Below, piece by piece: positions 13,076 through 46,138 of a stretch of 64,000 bases of DNA. Position numbers and translations under genes: made by a program. The DNA is from Vicinamibacterales bacterium (lineage in GTDB: Bacteria > Acidobacteriota > Vicinamibacteria > Vicinamibacterales > UBA8438). The notes under the pieces are model-generated. The model had not been told where the DNA came from. It did not search any database and worked only from the letters and a program-made list of their open reading frames with translations. The stretch covers positions 41,707 to 105,706 of the forward strand of contig OZ241896.1 of the NCBI GenBank assembly GCA_965203565.1, written 5' to 3'. How positions within the stretch are numbered: position 1 is the stretch's first letter; every line of letters starts with the position of its first letter.

Positions 13076-14393
13076 ATGGGTCTGACGTTCGGCCAAGCAT
13101 TGTCGCGGGCCGCAGGAAGGCGACGGCTGCTTTCCGGTCACCGTGATCACAGCCGTGAACGCGACGGTACTGCCATCGTCTTTGGCGACGCAAATGCGCC
13201 GGACACGGCATTGCGCGTCACGTTCGACGGCTGGATCGCAGCTACCGGTCCGGCCGAAATGGTGGCTCGGTTGCCGGAACGCAGCAATTGCGTGCTCTCG
13301 GGCATCCTCGCCTCGTCGCTGGCGGTGTCGGAGATCTTCATGTCCTGCATGGGCGTCAGCGTGGCGGCGACCCGACGTCGGATTACACACTCTCTTTGGC
13401 GTCCCGGCGCGGACGTGCTTGATCCAGAAGCGCGGGGCGTGTCGATCGAGTTTCTGCCGAGAGCACTGTGGGTGTTGGGCCTGGGACACCTTGGCAACGC
13501 ATACCTGTGGGCGATCGCCGCCTTGCAACATCCCGATCCTGGCGAGGTCGAGGTGGTCCTGAACGACTTCGATCGGGTGGAGCCCGAAAACGTCGAAACC
13601 GGTCTGCTCTTCACGAACGTCGCACGCGGACAGTTCAAGACGCGGGTGTGCAGCGCATGGCTGGAAAAGCGAGGATTCCGGACGAGGATCGTCGAACGGC
13701 GGTTCGACGAGCATTTTCGCTGTCAAGCCGACGAGCCCCGGCTCGCGCTGTGCGGCTTCGACAACAACGCTGCACGAAGGCATCTGAAGGCGGCGGAGTT
13801 CGATCGCGTGCTCGAAAGCGGTCTCGGCGGGAAGGCCGATAATTTCGACACGCTTGCCGTTCACACCTTTCCGCAGTTCCGGCGCGTGGAGGAGTTATGG
13901 CGGGACGCTTCGCCAGAAGAAATTGCCGCCGACCATGAACACCGGATGCGCGCCGCGCAACAAAGCGCGGCCTATCAGCCCGTGGCGAAAGTCCCCGCTG
14001 CATTCGAGCGGCGATGCATCCCGCCTGACGGCGTTGTTCGTCGGTTGCGTATGCCCAATATGCGCCCTCCTCACGCCTTGTCAGCCGGGCGCCTCACCGC
14101 TCTCGGCGCGACGCGGGGATTCCACCACGGGCTGCTATGCCGGTATCGGGCACGACGAGTGCGGCAGATTCACGCTGGCAGGAAAGTCCATCGCCGTGCC
14201 GTTCGTCGGAACCGCGGCGGCGAGTTTCGTGCTTGCCGAAGCGATTCGACTTTTTCATCGGGGACCCGCGTGCAACGCCGTCAAGTTGCGGATGGCCACA
14301 CCGGCCCGTACACAGGTCGTGTCGGAACGGACGTATGTCGACAGTGATATCGAACGGCTCCTCTATTCACAGGCTCCAAAAGCGCGGTTCTGA
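13076..14393 (+). pseudogene. ThiF/E1-like adenylyltransferase gene interrupted by a MITE-like insertion
   Basis: The N-part (frame of 12656..) contains the Rossmann motif LWVLGLGHLGNAYLWAIAAL and LCGFDNNAARRHL. The C-part (frame of 13854..14393) reads YAGIGHDECGRFTLAGKSIAVPFVGTAAASFVLAEAIRL. Removing 13976-14134 plus one CTAT copy (163 nt) rejoins the frames into a 384-aa ORF. The true start is uncertain (ATG 13076 or GTG 12974). Confidence 0.75.
13976..14134 (+). mobile_element. MITE-like hairpin repeat, copy 1 (159 bp)
   Basis: Begins CAGCCCGTGGCGAAAGTCCCCGC and ends GCGGGGATTCCACCACGGGCTG. Flanked by direct CTAT (13972-13975 and 14135-14138). Confidence 0.85.
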
Positions 14394-15419: not shown

Positions 15420-16411
15420 CTACCCATCGGCCTTCTGCTCCGCCACCACGCCGTCGAGCATCTCCACCACTTCGTCCATCCGCCGCCAGAAGTCCCGGCT
15501 GCCGGCGTCGAACTCGGCCCACGCGCTCCGCAGGTCGCCGGCCGGCCGCCGCACGTAGCGCGGGATCGACAGGTTCCCGTCGTTGGCGAGCACGTCGGCC
15601 GTCGTGGCCACCGCGGCGAAGCCCGGCTCGTCGGCGAACGCCCGGTACGCCTTCAGAATCCGCTGCTGGTGCGCCGCCGTGCAGGAAGCTCTGCGCGCGC
15701 TCGCGCGCCACTTCGCGCACCGCGTCGAGGAACAGCACCCGGCCGCGGCGCTTCGGCGGCTTGCGGGTGCGGCAGACGACGACGCACGCCTCCATCGGCG
15801 AGTTGTAGAACAGGTTCGGCCCGAGGCCGAGCACGCAGTCGACGAGGTCGCGCTCGATCAGGGCGCGGCGCATCGCGGCCTCCTCGTTGCGGAACAGGAC
15901 GCCGTGCGGGAAGAGGATGGCGCAGCGGCCGGTCCGCGCGGAACGCGTTCCGCAGCGCCCGGCCGACGTCGCGCGCCGCCCCGCGGACGTCGGACCAGTG
16001 GGCGCCGTCCGGGATGGCGAACCGGTCGTCGGCCGGCGCCCGCGCGTAGCCTTCGTCGCCGGTCTCGTCGAGGGCGGCGCGGCGCTCCTCGTCCCAGACG
16101 TCGGAGAGGCGCTTGAAGAAGAGCAGCGTGAAGGCGTATTGCTTGTAGTCGCCGGCGTCGACCAGCCCGCGCAGGAGGTTGGCGGCGCCCCAGAGGTACG
16201 ACTCCAGCGCCGGCCGGCCGAGGCGTTCGACGGGTGCGCTTACCAGCCCGTGGCGGAAGTCCCCGCTGCATTCGAGCGGCGATGCATCCCGCCTGACGGC
16301 GTTGTTCGTCGGTTGCGTATGCCCAATATGCGCCCTCCTCACGCCTTGTCAGCCGGGCGCCTCGCCGCTCTCGGTGCGACGCGGGGTTCCACCACGGGCT
16401 GTTACGGTCAC
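15420..16411 (-). pseudogene. hsdM: type I R-M methyltransferase hsdM, degraded (MITE insertion, internal deletion, frameshift)
   Basis: The HsdM_N-like part reads LESYLWGAANLLRGLVDAGDYKQYAFTLLFFKRLSD. It joins near 15930-15950 directly to GRCAILFPHGVLFRNEEAAMRRALIERDLVDCVLGLGPNLFYNSPMEACVVVCR...RGRVLFLDA. After a 1-nt frameshift near 15665 comes TAAHQQRILKAYRAFADEPGFAAVATTADVLANDGNLSIPRYV. Only about 276 codons remain, against roughly 500 expected. The GTG start overlaps the upstream vapC stop, and the MITE sits after codon 3. Confidence 0.75.
16244..16401 (+). mobile_element. MITE-like hairpin repeat, copy 2 (158 bp)
   Basis: Same termini as copy 1. Flanked by direct TTAC (16240-16243 and 16402-16405). 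Four differences from copy 1. Confidence 0.85.
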
Positions 16412-16836
16412 GCCAGCGGATTCTTCCACCGCAGGCCGGGGAACCGCGCCATGTCGGCATCGGTCGAGTGGAGCTCCGCCTGGTGCTCGATCGCCAGGGC
16501 CGCCAAGTGCGCGTCAGTGGTCAGGTTGCCCGCCACGCCGACTGCGTCGAGAAGGTCGAACAGGATGTCGGCGTGACGGTCGCCCGGGTGGATGAGGATG
16601 GCCTGCGGCCGGGCAATCCACGAGCGGACGCGGCTGCATGCGCCGCCGACGTCAAGGGGGTTCTGGAGGATCCTCCCATGCGTCGTGACACGAATGAAAC
16701 CGAGGATGGCGTTCCAGGGAAGGCCCACGCTGGTCGTCCCGCTCAACAGCGTTTCCCACCAAGCTCGCGCGGCGTCGTGTCGGCGCGACGTCGCATCGTG
16801 GGCGTAGACCAGCAGGTTGACGTCGGGAACGATCAT
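16408..16836 (-). CDS. vapC: PIN-domain toxin VapC
   Basis: MIVPDVNLLVYAHD...WNAILGFIRVTT...NLTTDAHLAALAIEHQAELHSTDADMARF. The start overlaps the antitoxin stop by 4 nt. Confidence 0.85.
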   Translation of the reverse strand: MIVPDVNLLVYAHDATSRRHDAARAWWETLLSGTTSVGLPWNAILGFIRVTTHGRILQNPLDVGGACSRVRSWIARPQAILIHPGDRHADILFDLLDAVGVAGNLTTDAHLAALAIEHQAELHSTDADMARFPGLRWKNPLA

Positions 16837-17180
16837 CGGCGCAGCTTCCCGGCGACCTCCTCGGCCTCCAGCTCGTCCGCGAGCTGGTTGAGCCGGTCGA
16901 CGTCGACGCCCGGCTTGAAGCCGAAAGCGTGCGGCTTCACCTTGAACCGCGCTTCGACCTCTTCCATGATGGCCGGAACCGTCTTCCCGCTCGGGCCGCT
17001 GCCGAGACCTTCCCGGACCGCGGCCCCGAGGGCTTCCATCCCCGCGCTCCGTTCCTGGTCGCGACGAATCAGGTCCCGGATGTACTCGCTGTCGTTGGTG
17101 AAACGGCCGGCGACGATCTGCGCCTTGATCCACCCATCCTGCAGATCGGTCAGTGTGATGGTCTTGCGGACGGTTCCCAT
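16833..17180 (-). CDS. ParD/CopG-like RHH antitoxin
   Basis: 115-aa ORF. TITLTDLQDGWIKAQIVAGRFTNDSEYIRDLIRRDQER matches the ParD-family ribbon-helix-helix N-terminus. It is coupled to the downstream PIN gene. Confidence 0.65.
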   Translation of the reverse strand: MGTVRKTITLTDLQDGWIKAQIVAGRFTNDSEYIRDLIRRDQERSAGMEALGAAVREGLGSGPSGKTVPAIMEEVEARFKVKPHAFGFKPGVDVDRLNQLADELEAEEVAGKLRR

Positions 17181-17470
17181 TTTGCGACCTCCAGAAATGC
17201 TCTCGCAGTCATACTATCGGTGCATGTTAGCACGATCCGTCGTTTCCAGCGCGCTCCGAGCCACTCGCGCCCGGCGGCGAGGAACAGCGTCTTGCCGCGG
17301 CGCTTCGCCGGCGAGCAACTGGGTCATATACTCGTTCCGGTGTCCGGTTCCCCCGCGATGATGCAGGATGACGGAATGCGTATGACGCTGAACCTCCCGC
17401 CGGAACTGCTCGACGAAGCGCATCGGTCCGACGCGCGCTGCGGCGTCGGGCGCGCTGCTCGCGCTCAGCA

Positions 17471-17742
17471 TTCTCGCTCATCGGCCGCATCGGGTTCGGC
17501 GCGCCTCGGCCGGCGCTCCCGCCCTCGCCCTGGCTGGATCGGGCGCCTTTGCCCTACCAGCCCGTGGCGAAAGTCCCCGCTGCATTCGAGCGGCGATGCA
17601 TCCCGCCTGACGGCGTTGTTCGTCGGTTGCGTATGCCCAATATGCGCCCTCCTCACGCCTTGTCAGGCGGGCGCCTCACCGCTCTCGGTGCGACGCGGGG
17701 ATTCCACCACGGGCTGCTACGCGCAGGTGGACGCCGCCGCCG
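17471..17742 (+). pseudogene. 3-prime remnant of a second autotransporter-like adhesin gene, carrying MITE copy 3
   Basis: 17471-17557 aligns to 23615-23701 (76 of 87 nt by manual alignment). It translates FSLIGRIGFGAPRPALPPSPWLDRAPLPY, against FSLIGRIGFGAPRTALPPAPWMNPPSLHY in the intact gene. 17717-17742 continues the match to 23698-23725. Confidence 0.7.
17558..17716 (+). mobile_element. MITE-like hairpin repeat, copy 3 (159 bp)
   Basis: Flanked by direct CTAC (17554-17557 and 17717-17720). Two differences from copy 1. Confidence 0.85.
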
Positions 17743-17896
17743 GCCTCCTCGCCACGCCTCCGGGCGCAGAAGGCGAATGCGGGTCACCTCGAAATCGGGA
17801 TCACTGCAAGTGATGAATCCATGCTATTGTGGACCGTTTGCCTCGTGCCGGTTTCTTCTTCTGTGGCCAACATGCTCATGAATTCCCTGCGGCCCC

Positions 17897-20800
17897 ATGC
17901 TGACTCCCCCCCCCCCCCCCCCGGATTTGATTCCCGCTGACGCTCGCCGGCGGCCTTTTCGCGCAACCCGACTCGCCGTCGGGCTGCTGATCGCCGCCGT
18001 CCCGTGGACGTTCGCCGCCGACGCGGACGCGCAGACGCTGCCGGTGCTGTCGATCGATTCGCCGAGCGTGGTCGAGGGCGACAGCGGTTCGACGAACCTG
18101 AACTTCACCGTGACTCTGAGCGCGTCCAGCACCAGCCAGGTGACGGTGGCCTACGCCGACGCCGGGACGGGGACGGCGACGAGCGGCACGGACTACACGG
18201 CGCTGACGGCGGGGATGCTGACGTTCGCGGCGGGGACGACGAGCCGGACGATCACGGTGTCGGTGACGGGCGACACGAGCCACGAGTCGCACGAGACCGT
18301 GGTGGTCACCCTGAGCAACCCGACGAACGCGACGGTGTCGGCGACGGCGGGCAGCGGGACGGGGACGATCCGGGACGACGAGGGGCTGACGCTGTCGGTC
18401 AATTCGCCGACCGTGGCCGAAGGGGACAGCGGCTCGACGAACCTGAACTTCACGGTGAGTCTGAGCGCGGCGAGCACGCAGAACGTCAACGTGATATTCG
18501 GGATCACGGGGGGCACGGCGACGGCGGGCACGGACTACACGACGTCCTTGACGAACAACCGGATACGGCTGCGCTTCAGGCCGGGCCAGACGAGCAAGAC
18601 GATCACGCTGGCGGTGCAGGGAGACACGCTCGACGAGCCGGACGAGACGGTGTTGGTGGCCTTGAGCGGGGCTTCCTTCAACGCGCGGATTACGACGGGC
18701 ACGGGGACCGGCACGATCACCGACGACGACCCTTTGCCGACCCTCTCGATCGATTCGCCGAGCGTGACCGAGGGCGACAGCGGCTCGACGGACATGATCT
18801 TCACGATAAGCCTGAGCGCGGCGAGCGGCAGGGAGGTGAGGATGGCGTACGGGATCTATCCGGGGGACGGTACGGCCACTGCTAACACGGACTTCACGGG
18901 GATAGACGGCTTTCGGTTCTTCACGTTCGCGCCGGGGGAGACGAGCAAGACGTTCACGGTGGAGGTGCTGGGGGACACGGACCCCGAGGCGGACGAGACG
19001 GTGGGAATCAGGCTTGCGGCCGGGCCGGCAAACGCAGTGCTCGGGGGAAACGGGAGGGGAGTCGGGACCATCACGGACGACGACATCGCGTTTCTGCGGA
19101 CCGGCCCGGCGAGCGTGGCGGAGGGGGACAGCGGCTCGACGAACCTGAACTTCACGGTGAGTCTGGCGGCGGCGAGCGGGAAGACGGTGACGGTGGACTA
19201 CGCCGACACCGGCAGGGGAACGGCGACGAGCGGTACGGACTACACGGCGTTGGCCGCGGGTACCTTGACCATTGCGCCGGGGGATACGAGCGGGACGATC
19301 ACGGTGGAGGTGACGGGGGACGAAGTTGTCGAGCGGCCCGAGACGGTGCTGCTGACCCTGAGCAATCCGACGAACGCGCGGTTCCTGATAGCAAGCATGG
19401 CCAGCTTGACGGGGACGATCCGGGACGACGACGGCTTCCCGGTGGCGAACGCGGGAGCGGACCAGACGGTGAGCGAGGGCGCCACGGTGACCCTGTCGGG
19501 GAGCGGTTCGGACCCTGACGGCACTCCGGTGAGCGGCTATCGGTGGACCCAGACGGCCGGCCCGGCGGTGACGCTGACGAGCGCGACGACGGCGACGACG
19601 AGCTTCACGGCGCCGACCGGTCTGGCGGCCGACGAGACGTTGCGGTTTTCGCTGGTGGTGACGGCGGGCTTCGAAGGCGGGTCGGACTCGGTGGACATCC
19701 TGGTGAACGCGGCCAACCCGAACTGGACGGCGGAAGCGGGGCCGAACCAGACGGTGGAGGAAGACGACGCGGTGACCCTGTCGGGGAGGACCCTGTCGGG
19801 GGGCGCCGATCTGACCCTGCAGGGCGTGATGCAGCCGGGCTATTCGTGGCGCCATACGAGCGGCGGCGGCTCGACGGTGCGTCTGACGGGGGCGGCGACG
19901 GCGTCGCCGCGCTTCACGGCGCCGAACCTGTTGGCGGACGCGACGTTGACGTTCACGCTGACGGTGACGGTGGGCAACGACACCATGACGGACACGGTGG
20001 ACGTCACGGTGCAGGCGGACAACGACGATCCGGCGGCGAACGCGGGTCCGGACCAGACGGTGTACGAGGGCGGCGCGGTGACGCTGCCGGGGAGAGGTTC
20101 GGATCCCGAGGGCGAGTCGCTGAGCTACTCGTGGAGCCAGACGGAGGGTCCGAACGTGACGCTGACGGGCGCGCTGTCGCCGACGGCGCGCTTCACGGCG
20201 CCGTTGGTGACGTCGGACGTGACGCTGACGTTCACGCTGACGGTGACGGCGGGCGGGGCCACCGCCACGGACACGGTGGCGGTGACGGTCGAACCCCTCG
20301 TGCTGATGGCGAACGCGGGCCCGGACCAGGTGGTGGACGAGGGCGACGCGGTGCGCCTGGACGGGACCGGTTCGACGGCGCCGCTCGGGGCCGGCCCGCT
20401 GATCTACTCGTGGAGCCAGACGGGCGGCAGCCCGAGCGTGACGCTGACGGGGGCGACGACGGCGACGCCGAGCTTCACGGCGCCGTCGGGTCTGACGGCG
20501 GACGTGACGCTGACGTTCACGCTGACGGTGACGGTGGGCGGAGAGGGGGCGGCCAGCGAAACGGACACGGTGGAGGTGACGGTCGAGTGGATTGGCCCGG
20601 TTGGCGCGCCCACGGTGCTGACGGCGGACGCGGGAGAGGACCGGACGGTGGACGGCGGCGACGCGGTGCGCCTGGACGGGAGCGGCTCGACGGCGCCGCC
20701 CGGCGAGGAGCTGCGCTGGTCGTGGCGCCAGACGGGGGGCGGCCCGAGCGTGACGCTGACGGGGGCGACGACGGCGACGCCGAGCTTCACGGCGCCGGAC

Positions 20801-23734
20801 GTGACGTCGAACGTGACGTTGACGTTCACGCTGACGGTGACGGCGGGCGGGGACAGCGTGACGGACACGGTGGACGTCACGGTGACGCCGCGGGCGCCGG
20901 GGACGCCGGTGAACCGGCCGCCGGCGATCACGCTCTCCGGCGACCGGACGTATCGGCAAGGGGAGCGGGTCTCGCCGTTCATCGTCGCGGCGAGCGACCC
21001 GGACGGCGACGCGGTGGAGGTGGAGGTGGTCGGTCTGCCGCCGGGCCTGCGGCACGGGGGCGGGCTGGTGGAAGGGACGGTGGCGGCCGACGCGGCGGCG
21101 CAGGTCCACCGGGTGACGGTGACGGCTTCCGACGGCGTGGCGGCTCCGGTGCGGGCGACGTTCACGGTGACGGTGACGGCGCCGGATCGGGAGCCGGACC
21201 GGCCGCCGACGGGGGAGGCGCCTCCGGACCTGCGGCCGTCGTTCGCGGGGGTTCCGCCGGTTTCGCGGCAGTACCGGGTGGGCCGTCCGGCGGCCGGTTC
21301 GGCGCTGCCGGCGGCCGCAGGGGGCGACCGGCCGCTGCGGTACGAGCTGACGCCGGCGCCGCCGGCGGGCCTGCGGTTCGACGGCGGGAGCCGGACGTTG
21401 ACGGGGACGCCGACGGCCGAGCAGCGGCCGGCGCCCTGGACGCTGACGGCGACCGACGCGGACGGCGACACGGCGACGCTGGAGGTGACGATGGCGGTGC
21501 TCGACCCGCCGGTGGTGACCGGCCTGCGGCTGGTGTCGCAGCCGGCGGCGGGGGACACGTACGGGTACGGGGAAGCGGTCGCGGCGGAGGTGGCGTTCAG
21601 CGAGCCGGTCGAGGTGGCGGGGGCGCCGACGCTGGGACTGACGGTCGGCTCGGCGGTGCGGACGATGCGTCTGACGGGCGCCGAGGGTCCGCGGCTGCGG
21701 TTCGGGTACCGGGTGTCGGAGACCGACCTGGACGAGGACGGCGTGAGCGTGTCGGCGGACGCGCTGGCGCTGGGCGGCGGCCGGATCACGGACGCGCTGG
21801 GGACGGCGGCCGAGTTGGGGCATGCGGGTCTGGCGGGCCAGGCGGGACACCGGGTGGACGGGCGGCCTCGGGCGGTGGGGACGCTGCGCACGGTGACGGT
21901 GGTGCTGGGCGGCGCGGCGGCGCGGGTCGAGCTGTCGGGCGCGTTCCGGGGAGCGGAGACGTATGCGGCGGCGGTGGCGGACGGGTCGCTGGCGGCGGTG
22001 GAGGTGGACGGTTCGTCGGCGGTGGTGACCGGGTTGGCGGAGGGGACGACGACGGTGACGGTGACGGGCCGGAACGCGGGAGGTTCGGCGGAGCAGCGGT
22101 TCGGGGTGGTGGTGACGGCGTCGGCGGCGGAGCGCGAAGTGATGGTGTCGACGCTGGCGGGGGTGGGACGGAGCCTCCTGGCCGGCGCGTCCGCGACGGT
22201 GGGACGCCGTCTGGACGGGAGCGGCGGCGGCGGGGCGCCCGAGGCGCAGGCGTCGCTGGCGGGCCGGACGCTGCCGCTGGCGGGCGGCCCGGCGTCGGCG
22301 GCGGGGCGGACGGCGTGGCTGCGTCCGGAGGCGGGGACGTGGTCGCCGGCGGCGGCGTCTGCGGCGCCGGCGCTGGACCGGCCGCGGGCGGCGGCGCGGC
22401 GGGCGGCGGTGCGGGCGGGACTGACCACGGCGCAGGGCGGGCGGCTGACGGGCGAGGAGCTGCTGTTCGGCAGCGCGTTCACCTTCTCCGGCGGCGGGAC
22501 CGGCCAGGCGGCGGCCGAGGCCGGGCCGGGCGCGGGCGGCGGGCTGCGGTGGACGGCGTGGGGAGCGGGCGACCGGCAGTCGTTCCAGGGAACGGCCGGC
22601 TCGGGTGCGACCTACGACGGGCGGCCGGCGACGGCGGCGGCGGGGGTGGACGTCGAGCGGGGCCGCCTGCTGGCGGGGGTGGCGGTGGCGCGGAGCGTGG
22701 CCGATGCAAACTATGCGTTCCGCGACGCGGCGGAGGGCGTGAGCGGGCAGGGCGCGGTGGCGACGCGGCTGGTGACGGCGCAGCCGTATGCGCGGTGGGC
22801 GCTGGACGAGCGGACGTCGGTGTGGGGCGTGTTCGGCGCCGGCTGGGGCCGGGCGGAGGTGGCGCGGTCGGTGACGGCGGCGGCCGAATCGGCCGACCTG
22901 GCGGTGCTGATGGGACTCGGCGGCGTGCGGCGGGAACTCGGGCCGGCCGGCGGGCTGGAACTGGCGCTGCGGGGCGACGTGGGCGGGGCGTGGCTGGAGA
23001 CCGGCGGCGGCGGCGGCGGCCTGCTGGCGGGGCGGCGGGTGGCGGTGCACCAGTCGCGGCTGGGCCTGGAGATCGGACGGACGTTCGGAACGGGGCTGAC
23101 GGTGCGGCCGTTCGCGGCGGTGAGCGGACGGTACGACGGCGGGGCGGGGGCGACGGGGACGGGGCTGGAGGTGGCGGGCGGATTGCGGGCGTCGGACGGG
23201 GCGGGACGCGTCGAGGTGGAGGCGTCGGGGCGGGTGCTGGCGCTGCACACGGAGTCGGGATACCGGGAGCGGGGAGTGAGCGTGCGGGCGCGGCTGACGC
23301 CGGGAGGCGACCCCGGACGGGGGCTGTCGGTCGAGGTGACGCCGCGGTGGGGGGCGCCGCAGATCGGCGCGGAGACGCTGTGGCGGGACCAGGCGCTCGG
23401 CGCGGCGGCGGGCGGCGGCCGGCCGGAGACCGGCGCGCTCGATGCGCGGGTGGGATACGGACTCGGACTGCTGGCGCCGTTCGCGGAGATGGGATGGGCG
23501 GAGGACGCGCAGCGGCAGCGGCTCGGCCTGCGGGTGGGGCAGTTCGGCGACGCCGTCGACGTCGAGGTGACCGGCGAACGGTACGCCTTGCTCGGACGCC
23601 CGACCGACCACCGCTTCTCGCTCATCGGCCGCATCGGGTTCGGAGCGCCTCGGACGGCGCTCCCCCCCGCGCCCTGGATGAATCCGCCGTCCTTGCACTA
23701 CGCGCAGGCGGACGACGCCGCCGAGACGCCGTAG
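17897..23734 (+). CDS. giant surface adhesin: signal peptide, 4 Calx-beta, 5 PKD-like, Ig-like repeats, autotransporter-like beta-barrel
   Basis: 1945-aa ORF.
- The signal-like N-terminus is RRRPFRATRLAVGLLIAAVPWTFAADA.
- Four ~115-aa repeats match Calx-beta: SV.EGDSGSTNLNFTV.LSAAS...TATSGTDYT...F..G.TS.TITV.V.GD...E..ETV.
- Five ~95-aa repeats are PKD-like: ANAGPDQTV.EG..V.L.G.GS...Y.W.QT.G..VTLTGATTATPSFTAP....TLTFTLTVT.
- Two putative Ig (PPGL...GT) domains and a Big_2-like domain follow.
- The C-terminal ~500 aa are Gly/Ala/Arg-rich with alternating-pattern strands ending FSLIGRIGF. Confidence 0.85.
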   Translation: MLTPPPPPPDLIPADARRRPFRATRLAVGLLIAAVPWTFAADADAQTLPVLSIDSPSVVEGDSGSTNLNFTVTLSASSTSQVTVAYADAGTGTATSGTDYTALTAGMLTFAAGTTSRTITVSVTGDTSHESHETVVVTLSNPTNATVSATAGSGTGTIRDDEGLTLSVNSPTVAEGDSGSTNLNFTVSLSAASTQNVNVIFGITGGTATAGTDYTTSLTNNRIRLRFRPGQTSKTITLAVQGDTLDEPDETVLVALSGASFNARITTGTGTGTITDDDPLPTLSIDSPSVTEGDSGSTDMIFTISLSAASGREVRMAYGIYPGDGTATANTDFTGIDGFRFFTFAPGETSKTFTVEVLGDTDPEADETVGIRLAAGPANAVLGGNGRGVGTITDDDIAFLRTGPASVAEGDSGSTNLNFTVSLAAASGKTVTVDYADTGRGTATSGTDYTALAAGTLTIAPGDTSGTITVEVTGDEVVERPETVLLTLSNPTNARFLIASMASLTGTIRDDDGFPVANAGADQTVSEGATVTLSGSGSDPDGTPVSGYRWTQTAGPAVTLTSATTATTSFTAPTGLAADETLRFSLVVTAGFEGGSDSVDILVNAANPNWTAEAGPNQTVEEDDAVTLSGRTLSGGADLTLQGVMQPGYSWRHTSGGGSTVRLTGAATASPRFTAPNLLADATLTFTLTVTVGNDTMTDTVDVTVQADNDDPAANAGPDQTVYEGGAVTLPGRGSDPEGESLSYSWSQTEGPNVTLTGALSPTARFTAPLVTSDVTLTFTLTVTAGGATATDTVAVTVEPLVLMANAGPDQVVDEGDAVRLDGTGSTAPLGAGPLIYSWSQTGGSPSVTLTGATTATPSFTAPSGLTADVTLTFTLTVTVGGEGAASETDTVEVTVEWIGPVGAPTVLTADAGEDRTVDGGDAVRLDGSGSTAPPGEELRWSWRQTGGGPSVTLTGATTATPSFTAPDVTSNVTLTFTLTVTAGGDSVTDTVDVTVTPRAPGTPVNRPPAITLSGDRTYRQGERVSPFIVAASDPDGDAVEVEVVGLPPGLRHGGGLVEGTVAADAAAQVHRVTVTASDGVAAPVRATFTVTVTAPDREPDRPPTGEAPPDLRPSFAGVPPVSRQYRVGRPAAGSALPAAAGGDRPLRYELTPAPPAGLRFDGGSRTLTGTPTAEQRPAPWTLTATDADGDTATLEVTMAVLDPPVVTGLRLVSQPAAGDTYGYGEAVAAEVAFSEPVEVAGAPTLGLTVGSAVRTMRLTGAEGPRLRFGYRVSETDLDEDGVSVSADALALGGGRITDALGTAAELGHAGLAGQAGHRVDGRPRAVGTLRTVTVVLGGAAARVELSGAFRGAETYAAAVADGSLAAVEVDGSSAVVTGLAEGTTTVTVTGRNAGGSAEQRFGVVVTASAAEREVMVSTLAGVGRSLLAGASATVGRRLDGSGGGGAPEAQASLAGRTLPLAGGPASAAGRTAWLRPEAGTWSPAAASAAPALDRPRAAARRAAVRAGLTTAQGGRLTGEELLFGSAFTFSGGGTGQAAAEAGPGAGGGLRWTAWGAGDRQSFQGTAGSGATYDGRPATAAAGVDVERGRLLAGVAVARSVADANYAFRDAAEGVSGQGAVATRLVTAQPYARWALDERTSVWGVFGAGWGRAEVARSVTAAAESADLAVLMGLGGVRRELGPAGGLELALRGDVGGAWLETGGGGGGLLAGRRVAVHQSRLGLEIGRTFGTGLTVRPFAAVSGRYDGGAGATGTGLEVAGGLRASDGAGRVEVEASGRVLALHTESGYRERGVSVRARLTPGGDPGRGLSVEVTPRWGAPQIGAETLWRDQALGAAAGGGRPETGALDARVGYGLGLLAPFAEMGWAEDAQRQRLGLRVGQFGDAVDVEVTGERYALLGRPTDHRFSLIGRIGFGAPRTALPPAPWMNPPSLHYAQADDAAETP
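17906..17922 (+). repeat. C17 homopolymeric tract at codons 4-9 of the adhesin ORF
   Basis: Counted directly: 5+10+2 consecutive C. It encodes PPPPPP in the frame of ATG 17897. Confidence 0.95.
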
Positions 23735-46121: not shown

Positions 46122-46138
46122 CAGCCCGCCACGGGCTG
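46122..46138. repeat. 17-bp mini-hairpin made of the fused tips of the MITE terminal repeats
   Basis: CAGCCCG-CCA-CGGGCTG equals the first 7 nt plus the last 10 nt of the repeat. It directly abuts the atpG stop codon (CTA at 46139-46141). Confidence 0.6.

Follow-up and report, generated by a model that had tools for sequence, protein, structure and literature searches.

The 159-bp element at 17558-17716 of the window (the whole 64,000-nt stretch analysed, to which coordinates refer unless they are given as genome positions) is, to judge from its sequence, an insertion made by transposition into a leftover 3' scrap of a surface-protein gene. The 87 nt that precede the element (17471-17557) align without gaps to 23615-23701, at the 3' end of the intact gene A, with 76 of 87 positions identical (87%; family D20 of the repeat finder), and BLAST against the whole 3.95-Mb genome returns this pair at E = 2.7e-24, while unrelated matches to the same 87 nt start only above E = 0.001. 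The right flank (17717-17742) matches 23698-23723 at 24 of 26 positions (92.3%). Gene A contains CTAC once (23698-23701), whereas the 17.5-kb locus has it twice (17554-17557 and 17717-17720) with both copies abutting the element. With the element and one CTAC taken out in silico, the joined flanks run collinear and gapless across the junction with the 3' ends of all intact paralogues. The preliminary description had read these relations from the letters, namely a 76/87 match before the element, about 26 aligned nucleotides after it, CTAC at the equivalent position and hence a paralogous pair of filled and empty sites. Repeat finder and whole-genome BLAST agree on the first of these, the alignment across the junction bears out the others, and the pairwise alignment places the homology of the flanks to 23615-23725 far beyond chance. 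A fortuitous resemblance of low-complexity, GC-rich sequence, which would leave the element between unrelated sequences, has next to no probability in our view: short GC-rich matches are common in a genome of 71% G+C, but neither the E-value of the 87-nt block nor an alignment that keeps the reading frame and stays collinear from one flank to the other fits such an origin.

The neighbouring gene A is not the only empty site. The genome (3,949,503 bp, one contig) contains exactly eight copies of this 3'-terminal tail module, in genes A, B and D, twice each in genes C (C1, C2) and E (E1, E2), and at the filled site, so that seven others are available for comparison and the orphan is the only one of the eight without a gene. 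Paralogous empty sites are found in A, B, D, tail 1 of C and the tails of E, and the one closest in sequence to the orphan is E1, in the giant gene at 1.879 Mb (83/87, 95.4%). A search of 13 same-genus genomes with the joined flanks gave no orthologous empty site, as locus and tail are both absent there and the matches were confined to the housekeeping lnt start and an antitoxin stub; every empty site used here is thus paralogous. The reasoning is that of the related empty sites of plant MITEs, in which a duplicated host sequence without the element shows the pre-insertion state and the length of the duplication. The same logic is applied here to bacterial adhesin paralogues with seven comparison sites, one of which apparently carries a deletion relic. 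The filled and empty pair amounts to a textbook-quality internal proof of 4-bp-duplicating transposition for this abundant Vicinamibacterales MITE, and it fixes the exact ends of the element (159 bp, CAG...CTG).

Table 1. Positions of the features discussed (window positions unless marked as genome)
Feature	Position	Strand	Description
Antitoxin stub, VapB/RHH-type	17376..17422	+	first 16 codons, MRMTLNLPPELLDEAH; cut off at 17422/17423
SPOR-gene S 3' flank and first lnt codons	17423..17469	+	47 nt; same order as at S-lnt
Single extra A	17470	+	junction of lnt-start fragment and tail
Orphan tail, left part	17471..17557	+	encodes FSLIGRIGFGAPRPALPPSPWLDRAPLPY; last beta-strand and proline-rich extension; ends in CTAC 17554-17557
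159-bp foldback MITE	17558..17716	+	imperfect terminal inverted repeats CAGCCCGTGGCGAAAGTCCCCGC ... GCGGGGATTCCACCACGGGCTG
Target copy 2, rest of tail, own downstream flank	17717..17764	+	target copy 17717-17720; tail continues YAQVDAAAG...
Shared upstream (promoter/leader) region of gene A	17761..17896	+	common to paralogues B and D
Gene A, intact family gene	17897..23734	+	1945 aa; ORF, ATG to stop
Gene A intact tail	23615..23725	+	empty target CTAC 23698-23701
Gene B	genome 685692-691610		about 1,970 codons, stop to stop
Gene C	genome 922202-950626		giant, 9,474 codons
Gene D	genome 950774-956605		about 1,940 codons, stop to stop
Gene E	genome 1845639-1880207		giant, 11,522 codons
IS of IS5/IS1182 type, 1470 bp	genome 184132-185601 and six other places		seven copies, 99-100% identity

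The element is a MITE by its sequence features: it is short and non-coding, with terminal inverted repeats, a fixed-length target duplication, many dispersed copies and recognisable empty sites. The only ORFs within it run through from outside, the first 10 nt (CAGCCCGTGG) are common to both ends, and the whole is predicted to fold back into one long rod (-49.8 kcal/mol, z = -5.3). BLAST matches of at least 140 nt number 174 in the genome (roughly 84-100% identity), with about 116 fragments in addition, and 160 copies span base 1 to base 159. A perfect 4-bp duplication flanks 124 of these 160 end-to-end copies, most of the others being off at one base. The 124 empty sites rebuilt from them give a palindromic target, GC-YTRR-GC (the duplicated tetranucleotide standing between hyphens), with G at -2 in 72/124, C at -1 in 95/124, Y-T-R-R at the duplicated positions, then G at +1 in 84/124 and C after it in 62/124. 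The site in the orphan tail, CC-CTAC-GC, is a good fit to this logo, and that in gene A, CA-CTAC-GC, a poorer one at -1. Transposition with a 4-bp duplication, which had been proposed from the single pair, is thereby seen across the genome, together with an IS that agrees in terminus, duplication and target (see below). Within the window the family has four direct copies and one inverted copy, with duplications CTAT, TTAC, CTAC, CTAG and TGAA. The copy in the orphan tail is 100% identical to five others in the genome, so that its insertion appears young and the youngest event at the locus. Rfam matched no family in the whole window at gathering thresholds; the MITE is thus not a described RNA. 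A scan for promoters and terminators returned one promoter-like site on the minus strand inside the MITE and no terminator. The family also occurs in 25 of 31 related genomes, in several genera and families of the order, at 85-94% identity, and the whole 159 nt is kept at this level, beyond what transposase binding alone would require.

The transposase that most likely drives the MITE is encoded by a 1470-bp IS, which was found from recurring 1470- and 1252-bp spacings of the termini; scans for paired termini of an autonomous element gave mainly neighbouring MITEs and fortuitous matches. Of one IS end (CAGCCCGTGGTAAAAGTC) the first 10 nt are identical to both MITE ends, 4-bp duplications flank six of the seven copies, and the duplicated tetranucleotide is preceded by C in 6/6 and followed by G in 5/6. 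The predicted transposase (458 aa) contains DUF772 and DDE_Tnp_1, both above the Pfam cut-offs, and shares these domains and the 4-bp duplication with the IS1182/IS5 superfamily. Its best NCBIfam match, IS1182 (NF033551), reaches 178.4 bits, below the curated cut-off of 270, and the next best, IS5_4, 90.6 bits, below 140; it is therefore called an IS5/IS1182-superfamily element and not a certified IS1182 member. Only the termini (10 nt exact, about 17/23 overall) are common to IS and MITE, so that the IS is a putative partner.

Elements of this general kind are well known in bacteria. The Correia elements (CREE/NEMIS) of Neisseria are abundant foldback MITEs of about 100-160 bp that lie near gene ends and sometimes inside genes, were likewise recognised by comparing filled with empty sites, and duplicate TA; we know of no transposase identified for them. 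In contrast, the MITE described here makes a 4-bp duplication and has a candidate transposase. The closest published analogue found, the MITEPsy1 element of Pseudomonas syringae pv. phaseolicola, probably derives from an IS5-family element (ISPsy2), is 100 nt long, occurs in about six copies with a 4-nt duplication of CTAG or YTAA, and was shown experimentally to move in a sacB trap (PMC3189936). Both MITEPsy1 and the present element are short and non-coding with terminal inverted repeats and a 4-nt duplication (here YTRR), and for both an IS with matching ends is presumed to act in trans. The present element differs in its length of 159 nt, its about 160 full copies and many fragments, its long foldback and a partner whose best score is to IS1182, and we infer its mobility from sequence only. 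A literature search on Vicinamibacter MITEs found only papers on mites (animals). The element is a new member of a familiar type, found in an unusually informative place, and leaves general knowledge of MITEs unchanged.

The gene that supplied the target belongs to a family of surface proteins of which gene A is the intact member in the window. The gene A protein carries four Calx-beta domains, five PKD-like domains and He_PIG (Pfam and NCBIfam). Its C-terminal 419 residues show no match to PF03797, nor to any Pfam family even at E up to 10, and a PDB sequence-profile search with the C-terminal domain returned noise only and no relative. Two of six aligned relatives match PF03797 at 1e-8 (39% identical, tblastn 1e-36), and the best relatives of the domain among species-representative genomes are Vicinamibacterales MAGs (60-65%) and a Pseudomonadales MAG (39%). 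In an AlphaFold2 model of low confidence (mean pLDDT 46.7) the domain has an all-beta fold of about 17 strands, with the tail disordered. The two matching relatives suggest, by transitive homology only, that the C-terminal ~400 residues form a divergent autotransporter-type barrel. The term autotransporter-like, used in the preliminary description, can accordingly be kept on the strength of the two relatives, while the gene A protein itself misses PF03797. The arrangement of a large N-terminal repeat passenger (Calx-beta, PKD) before a C-terminal all-beta domain resembles that of type Va autotransporters. A terminal aromatic residue is typical of outer-membrane barrels, and the MAG relatives end in ...FSLIGYVAF and a stop, or shortly after. 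Unlike them, the proteins of this genome extend past the last strand. In a protein-level search of 30 relatives the tail was absent and the homologues matched only up to the last strand, so that the 30-aa proline-rich tail is specific to this genome; the extension is presumably periplasmic.

Searching the genome for further tail copies, with the two meanings in mind that had been suggested for the tail, shows that it marks a five-gene adhesin family; a recombination cassette is disfavoured, as there is one orphan only. Genes A, B and D are close paralogues over about 5.9 kb (A-D 97.0%, A-B 96.8% identity). The giant genes C and E contain the same Calx-beta/PKD repeat units followed by the barrel, a tandem pair of tail modules and two SPOR domains (Pfam PF05036, E = 2.4e-23, in two stretches at the C-terminal ends). 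The part that follows the tails in C and E derives from a small membrane-anchored SPOR protein, S (genome 1842621-1843382), whose gene adjoins lnt. Similarity to S begins right after its membrane helix (GQGTARRQG-EAD): S reads VLVGQGTARRQGGEAD where C reads VLAGQGTARRQ...QGPARRQGDEADQGG, and in C it runs 43 nt past the stop, the last SPOR domain of C and its flank being 89.7% identical to S and its flank. It is unusual in an autotransporter-type protein for an outer-membrane barrel to precede periplasmic peptidoglycan-binding domains. Two SPOR peptidoglycan-binding domains at the end of the giant members set them apart from type Va autotransporters, and to our knowledge the combination of barrel, tail and SPOR does not occur in described autotransporters. 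These very large surface proteins form a fast-evolving family, in a soil acidobacterium that has been little studied, and the 3' ends of their genes have been duplicated, truncated, fused to a SPOR-protein sequence and hit by MITEs; the remodelling of adhesin genes by illegitimate recombination and mobile elements is thus recorded here in compact natural form. The interest of the locus lies mainly in these giant SPOR-tailed adhesins, in their poly-C tracts and in a probable healed insertion, both described below.

While the MITE event is real but ordinary, the history of the locus is more complicated than first proposed, since the orphan tail is embedded in a mosaic (17376-17800). At its left edge lie the first codons of a VapB/RHH-type antitoxin gene, of which an intact 65-aa homologue (VRITLDLPAELLDEAQRLLGFKSK...) is found in a same-genus genome; homology in the window ends at ...DEAH(R). 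The next 47 nt (17423-17469) match the 3' flank of S and the start of lnt at genome 1843398-1843444 (44/47, 93.6%), and also the intergenic region between C and D at genome 950642-950677 (33/36). An RHH-like start at 17376 had been considered as the left end of a gene-body deletion and was dropped, 17423-17469 being SPOR-flank/lnt sequence. The tail itself is closer to the giant genes than to the short ones: its left part matches E tail 1 at 83 and C tail 1 at 80 of 87 positions (92-95%), compared with 76 for A, 77 for B and 75 for D (86-88%), which assigns the orphan to the giant-gene lineage. To the right of the MITE, 17717-17742 matches both A and B at 24/26, the tail runs to about 17745, and 17732-17764 is 97% identical to the 33 nt just after the D stop (genome 956609-956641). 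Thereafter 17761-17781 is 95% identical to the region upstream of B and 17795-17900 is 98% identical to that upstream of D, and from 17852 onward the sequence is contiguous with B. Immediately left of the mosaic lie genes for a ParD-like antitoxin (16833-17180, minus strand) and a PIN-domain toxin (about 16408-16835, minus strand), and to the left of this pair fragments of a type I methylase gene and MITE copies at 13971-14140 and 16239-16408.

A mosaic of this kind could be produced by an assembly that collapsed or mis-joined paralogous repeats, and material for it is present in the 6-kb paralogues, which are 97% identical, and in the giant genes with their many repeats. Such an artefact is nevertheless highly improbable, because reads from other loci, if joined into a chimera, would match those loci at 100%, whereas each piece of the mosaic is 3-13% off its closest paralogue and never an exact copy, and the assembly consists of one 3.95-Mb contig with a completeness rating of 100%. 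Almost as improbable is that the orphan tail is itself functional, as a silent cassette for recombinational variation of the adhesin C-terminus, or as a regulatory element or small gene retained upstream of the adhesin. The reshuffling of tail modules among the paralogues, and a position 140-430 nt upstream of a probably phase-variable gene, are what such a role might lead one to expect, but the orphan is alone of its kind in the genome, lacks an upstream start codon in frame, has an in-frame stop 33 codons upstream and is split by the MITE. It is also missing from the equivalent position upstream of D and B, and its absence from all 30 relatives leaves no sign of conservation.

The reading that we consider very probable is that the MITE inserted into a dead tail, that the body of the gene had been lost by illegitimate recombination, and that the whole was imported with a 6.3-kb block. 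In this history, recombination between the first codons of lnt and the first codon of the last barrel strand would have removed the gene body. Both partners carry GCTTC at the crossover and have 15 of 22 nt in common around it (manual count). The resulting order would be the flank of the SPOR gene, the lnt start, the tail, the tail's downstream flank and the upstream region of the next gene. Next the block (17423 to about 23762, 6.3 kb), broken on the left within the SPOR-gene flank, would have been copied, and one copy would have landed in the VapB-type antitoxin gene at the window locus; a search to the right of the block (after about 23762) gave no convincing homology to the rest of that antitoxin gene. 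Subsequently the orphan would have disappeared from the D locus, and the MITE entered the A locus. Its DDE transposase is proposed to have cut and pasted the element into CC-CTAC-GC inside the dead fragment, which comprised the last beta-strand and proline-rich extension of a lost family member, and fill-in of the staggered 4-bp cut would have produced the two CTAC copies.

The relation to the C-D intergenic region bears on the order of these events. At the C-D junction ...GGCGTCGGG passes directly into ATCACTGC..., while in the window ...GGCGTCGGG is followed by CGCGCTGC..., the tail, the MITE and the flank up to ...AAATCGGG, and only then by ATCACTGC.... TCGGG stands on both sides of the extra segment of the window, and at C-D the flank runs straight into the D upstream region at this point, so that a window-like precursor seems to have undergone a deletion from TCGGG to TCGGG to give the C-D junction. 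Since the same S flank lies between C and D and TCGGG lies on both sides, the orphan structure probably predates the split of A and D, which have diverged by 3%, and probably arrived as the left end of the copied block. Because the left edge of the tail is joined to SPOR-flank/lnt sequence and not to local sequence, and the same flank is present at C-D, the deletion most likely predates the copying. The earlier proposal that a second gene once ended just upstream of gene A therefore holds in so far as a 3' remnant of a family gene stands in tandem with gene A, whereas the body of that gene was most likely not deleted in situ. We infer the order of the rearrangements from very short segments (36-47 nt) and parsimony, and an identical junction would also result if a tandem duplication (lnt start joined to tail start) were followed by more deletions. 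The extra A at 17470 is not accounted for by this history.

A different origin of the orphan, which we think unlikely though well worth weighing, makes it the displaced original 3' end of a giant gene and not the remnant of a deletion. A segment of the S-lnt region (the periplasmic part with SPOR, the stop, the flank and the lnt start) would have been inserted, or tandemly duplicated, into the tail, giving the giant gene its SPOR end and pushing the old end downstream. This would account for the continuation of C and E after the tail into S-derived sequence from right after the membrane helix, for the 89.7% identity of the C end and flank with S and its flank, and for the position of the orphan exactly downstream of the S flank; the tail module is moreover present twice in tandem in C and E, so that the region does duplicate. 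Displacement, however, presupposes a tail module at either side of the inserted segment, the 3' part of the orphan is of the short A/B/D type with the downstream flank of D, and the complete order that it predicts is found at no extant locus. Loss of the gene body by illegitimate recombination remains the reading that we prefer.

A second encounter of the same target with the MITE is suggested by tail 2 of gene C. At genome 949939-949957, CTAC is followed by the first 10 nt of the MITE (CAGCCCGTGG) and then by ACGAC, the normal continuation of the tail, within the context ...TTGTC CTAC CAGCCCGTGG ACGACGAC..., and the BLAST alignment of the orphan with C2 extends through these 10 nt (17475-17567 against genome 949863-949952, 87%). 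The tetranucleotide GTGG occurs at bases 7-10 of the MITE and at the end of GCGCAGGTGG in the target, and a deletion between the two would remove exactly 163 nt. This equals the 159 + 4 nt added by an insertion, so that the frame into the two SPOR domains would be restored, with the peptide YAQV turned into YQPV. Ordinary divergence would require four specific substitutions in six bases, with a chance of roughly 1e-5 (our own estimate for about 80% per-site identity). C2 is 86% identical to the orphan and 88% to C1; it does not derive from the orphan and would thus be an independent hit on a paralogous site. It is therefore rather likely, in our judgement, that the CC-CTAC-GC site of the tail was hit at least twice independently and that the hit in C2 was healed, under selection, by a frame-restoring 163-nt deletion. 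In that case a giant surface protein now includes codons that came from a MITE, and the filled, empty and healed states of one target stand side by side in one genome. Among 59 solo CAGCCCGTGG termini, 23 follow a YTR or Y[TCG]RR tetranucleotide, against about 7 expected (our own estimate), and by this count deletion relics of the MITE are common. Solo termini of 10-16 nt beside a target-like tetranucleotide occur at 46122-46138 of the window (a relic with fused tips) and at about 20 other sites in the genome.

All five family genes have a poly-C tract right after, or about 20 nt after, a conserved ATGCTGAC start. In gene A the tract (17906-17922) has 17 C and is in frame; those of B (genome 685777, 15 C) and D (genome 950767, 16 C) are both out of frame from the conserved ATG, and C (about genome 922190) and E (about genome 1845150) have 17 and 14 C, respectively. 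The tracts look like sites of slipped-strand phase variation of the surface proteins, subject to the unreliability of homopolymer lengths in long-read assemblies. In gene E the conserved start and poly-C lie about 500 nt upstream of the long open frame (genome 1845135-1845639), with an 80-nt fragment of the 1470-bp IS between the two (1845314-1845393), and the gene may be disrupted at its 5' end. A further MITE copy lies at genome 921992-922148, about 50 nt upstream of the open frame of gene C, so that, counting the copy before gene A, a MITE stands less than 200 nt upstream of two of the five family members.
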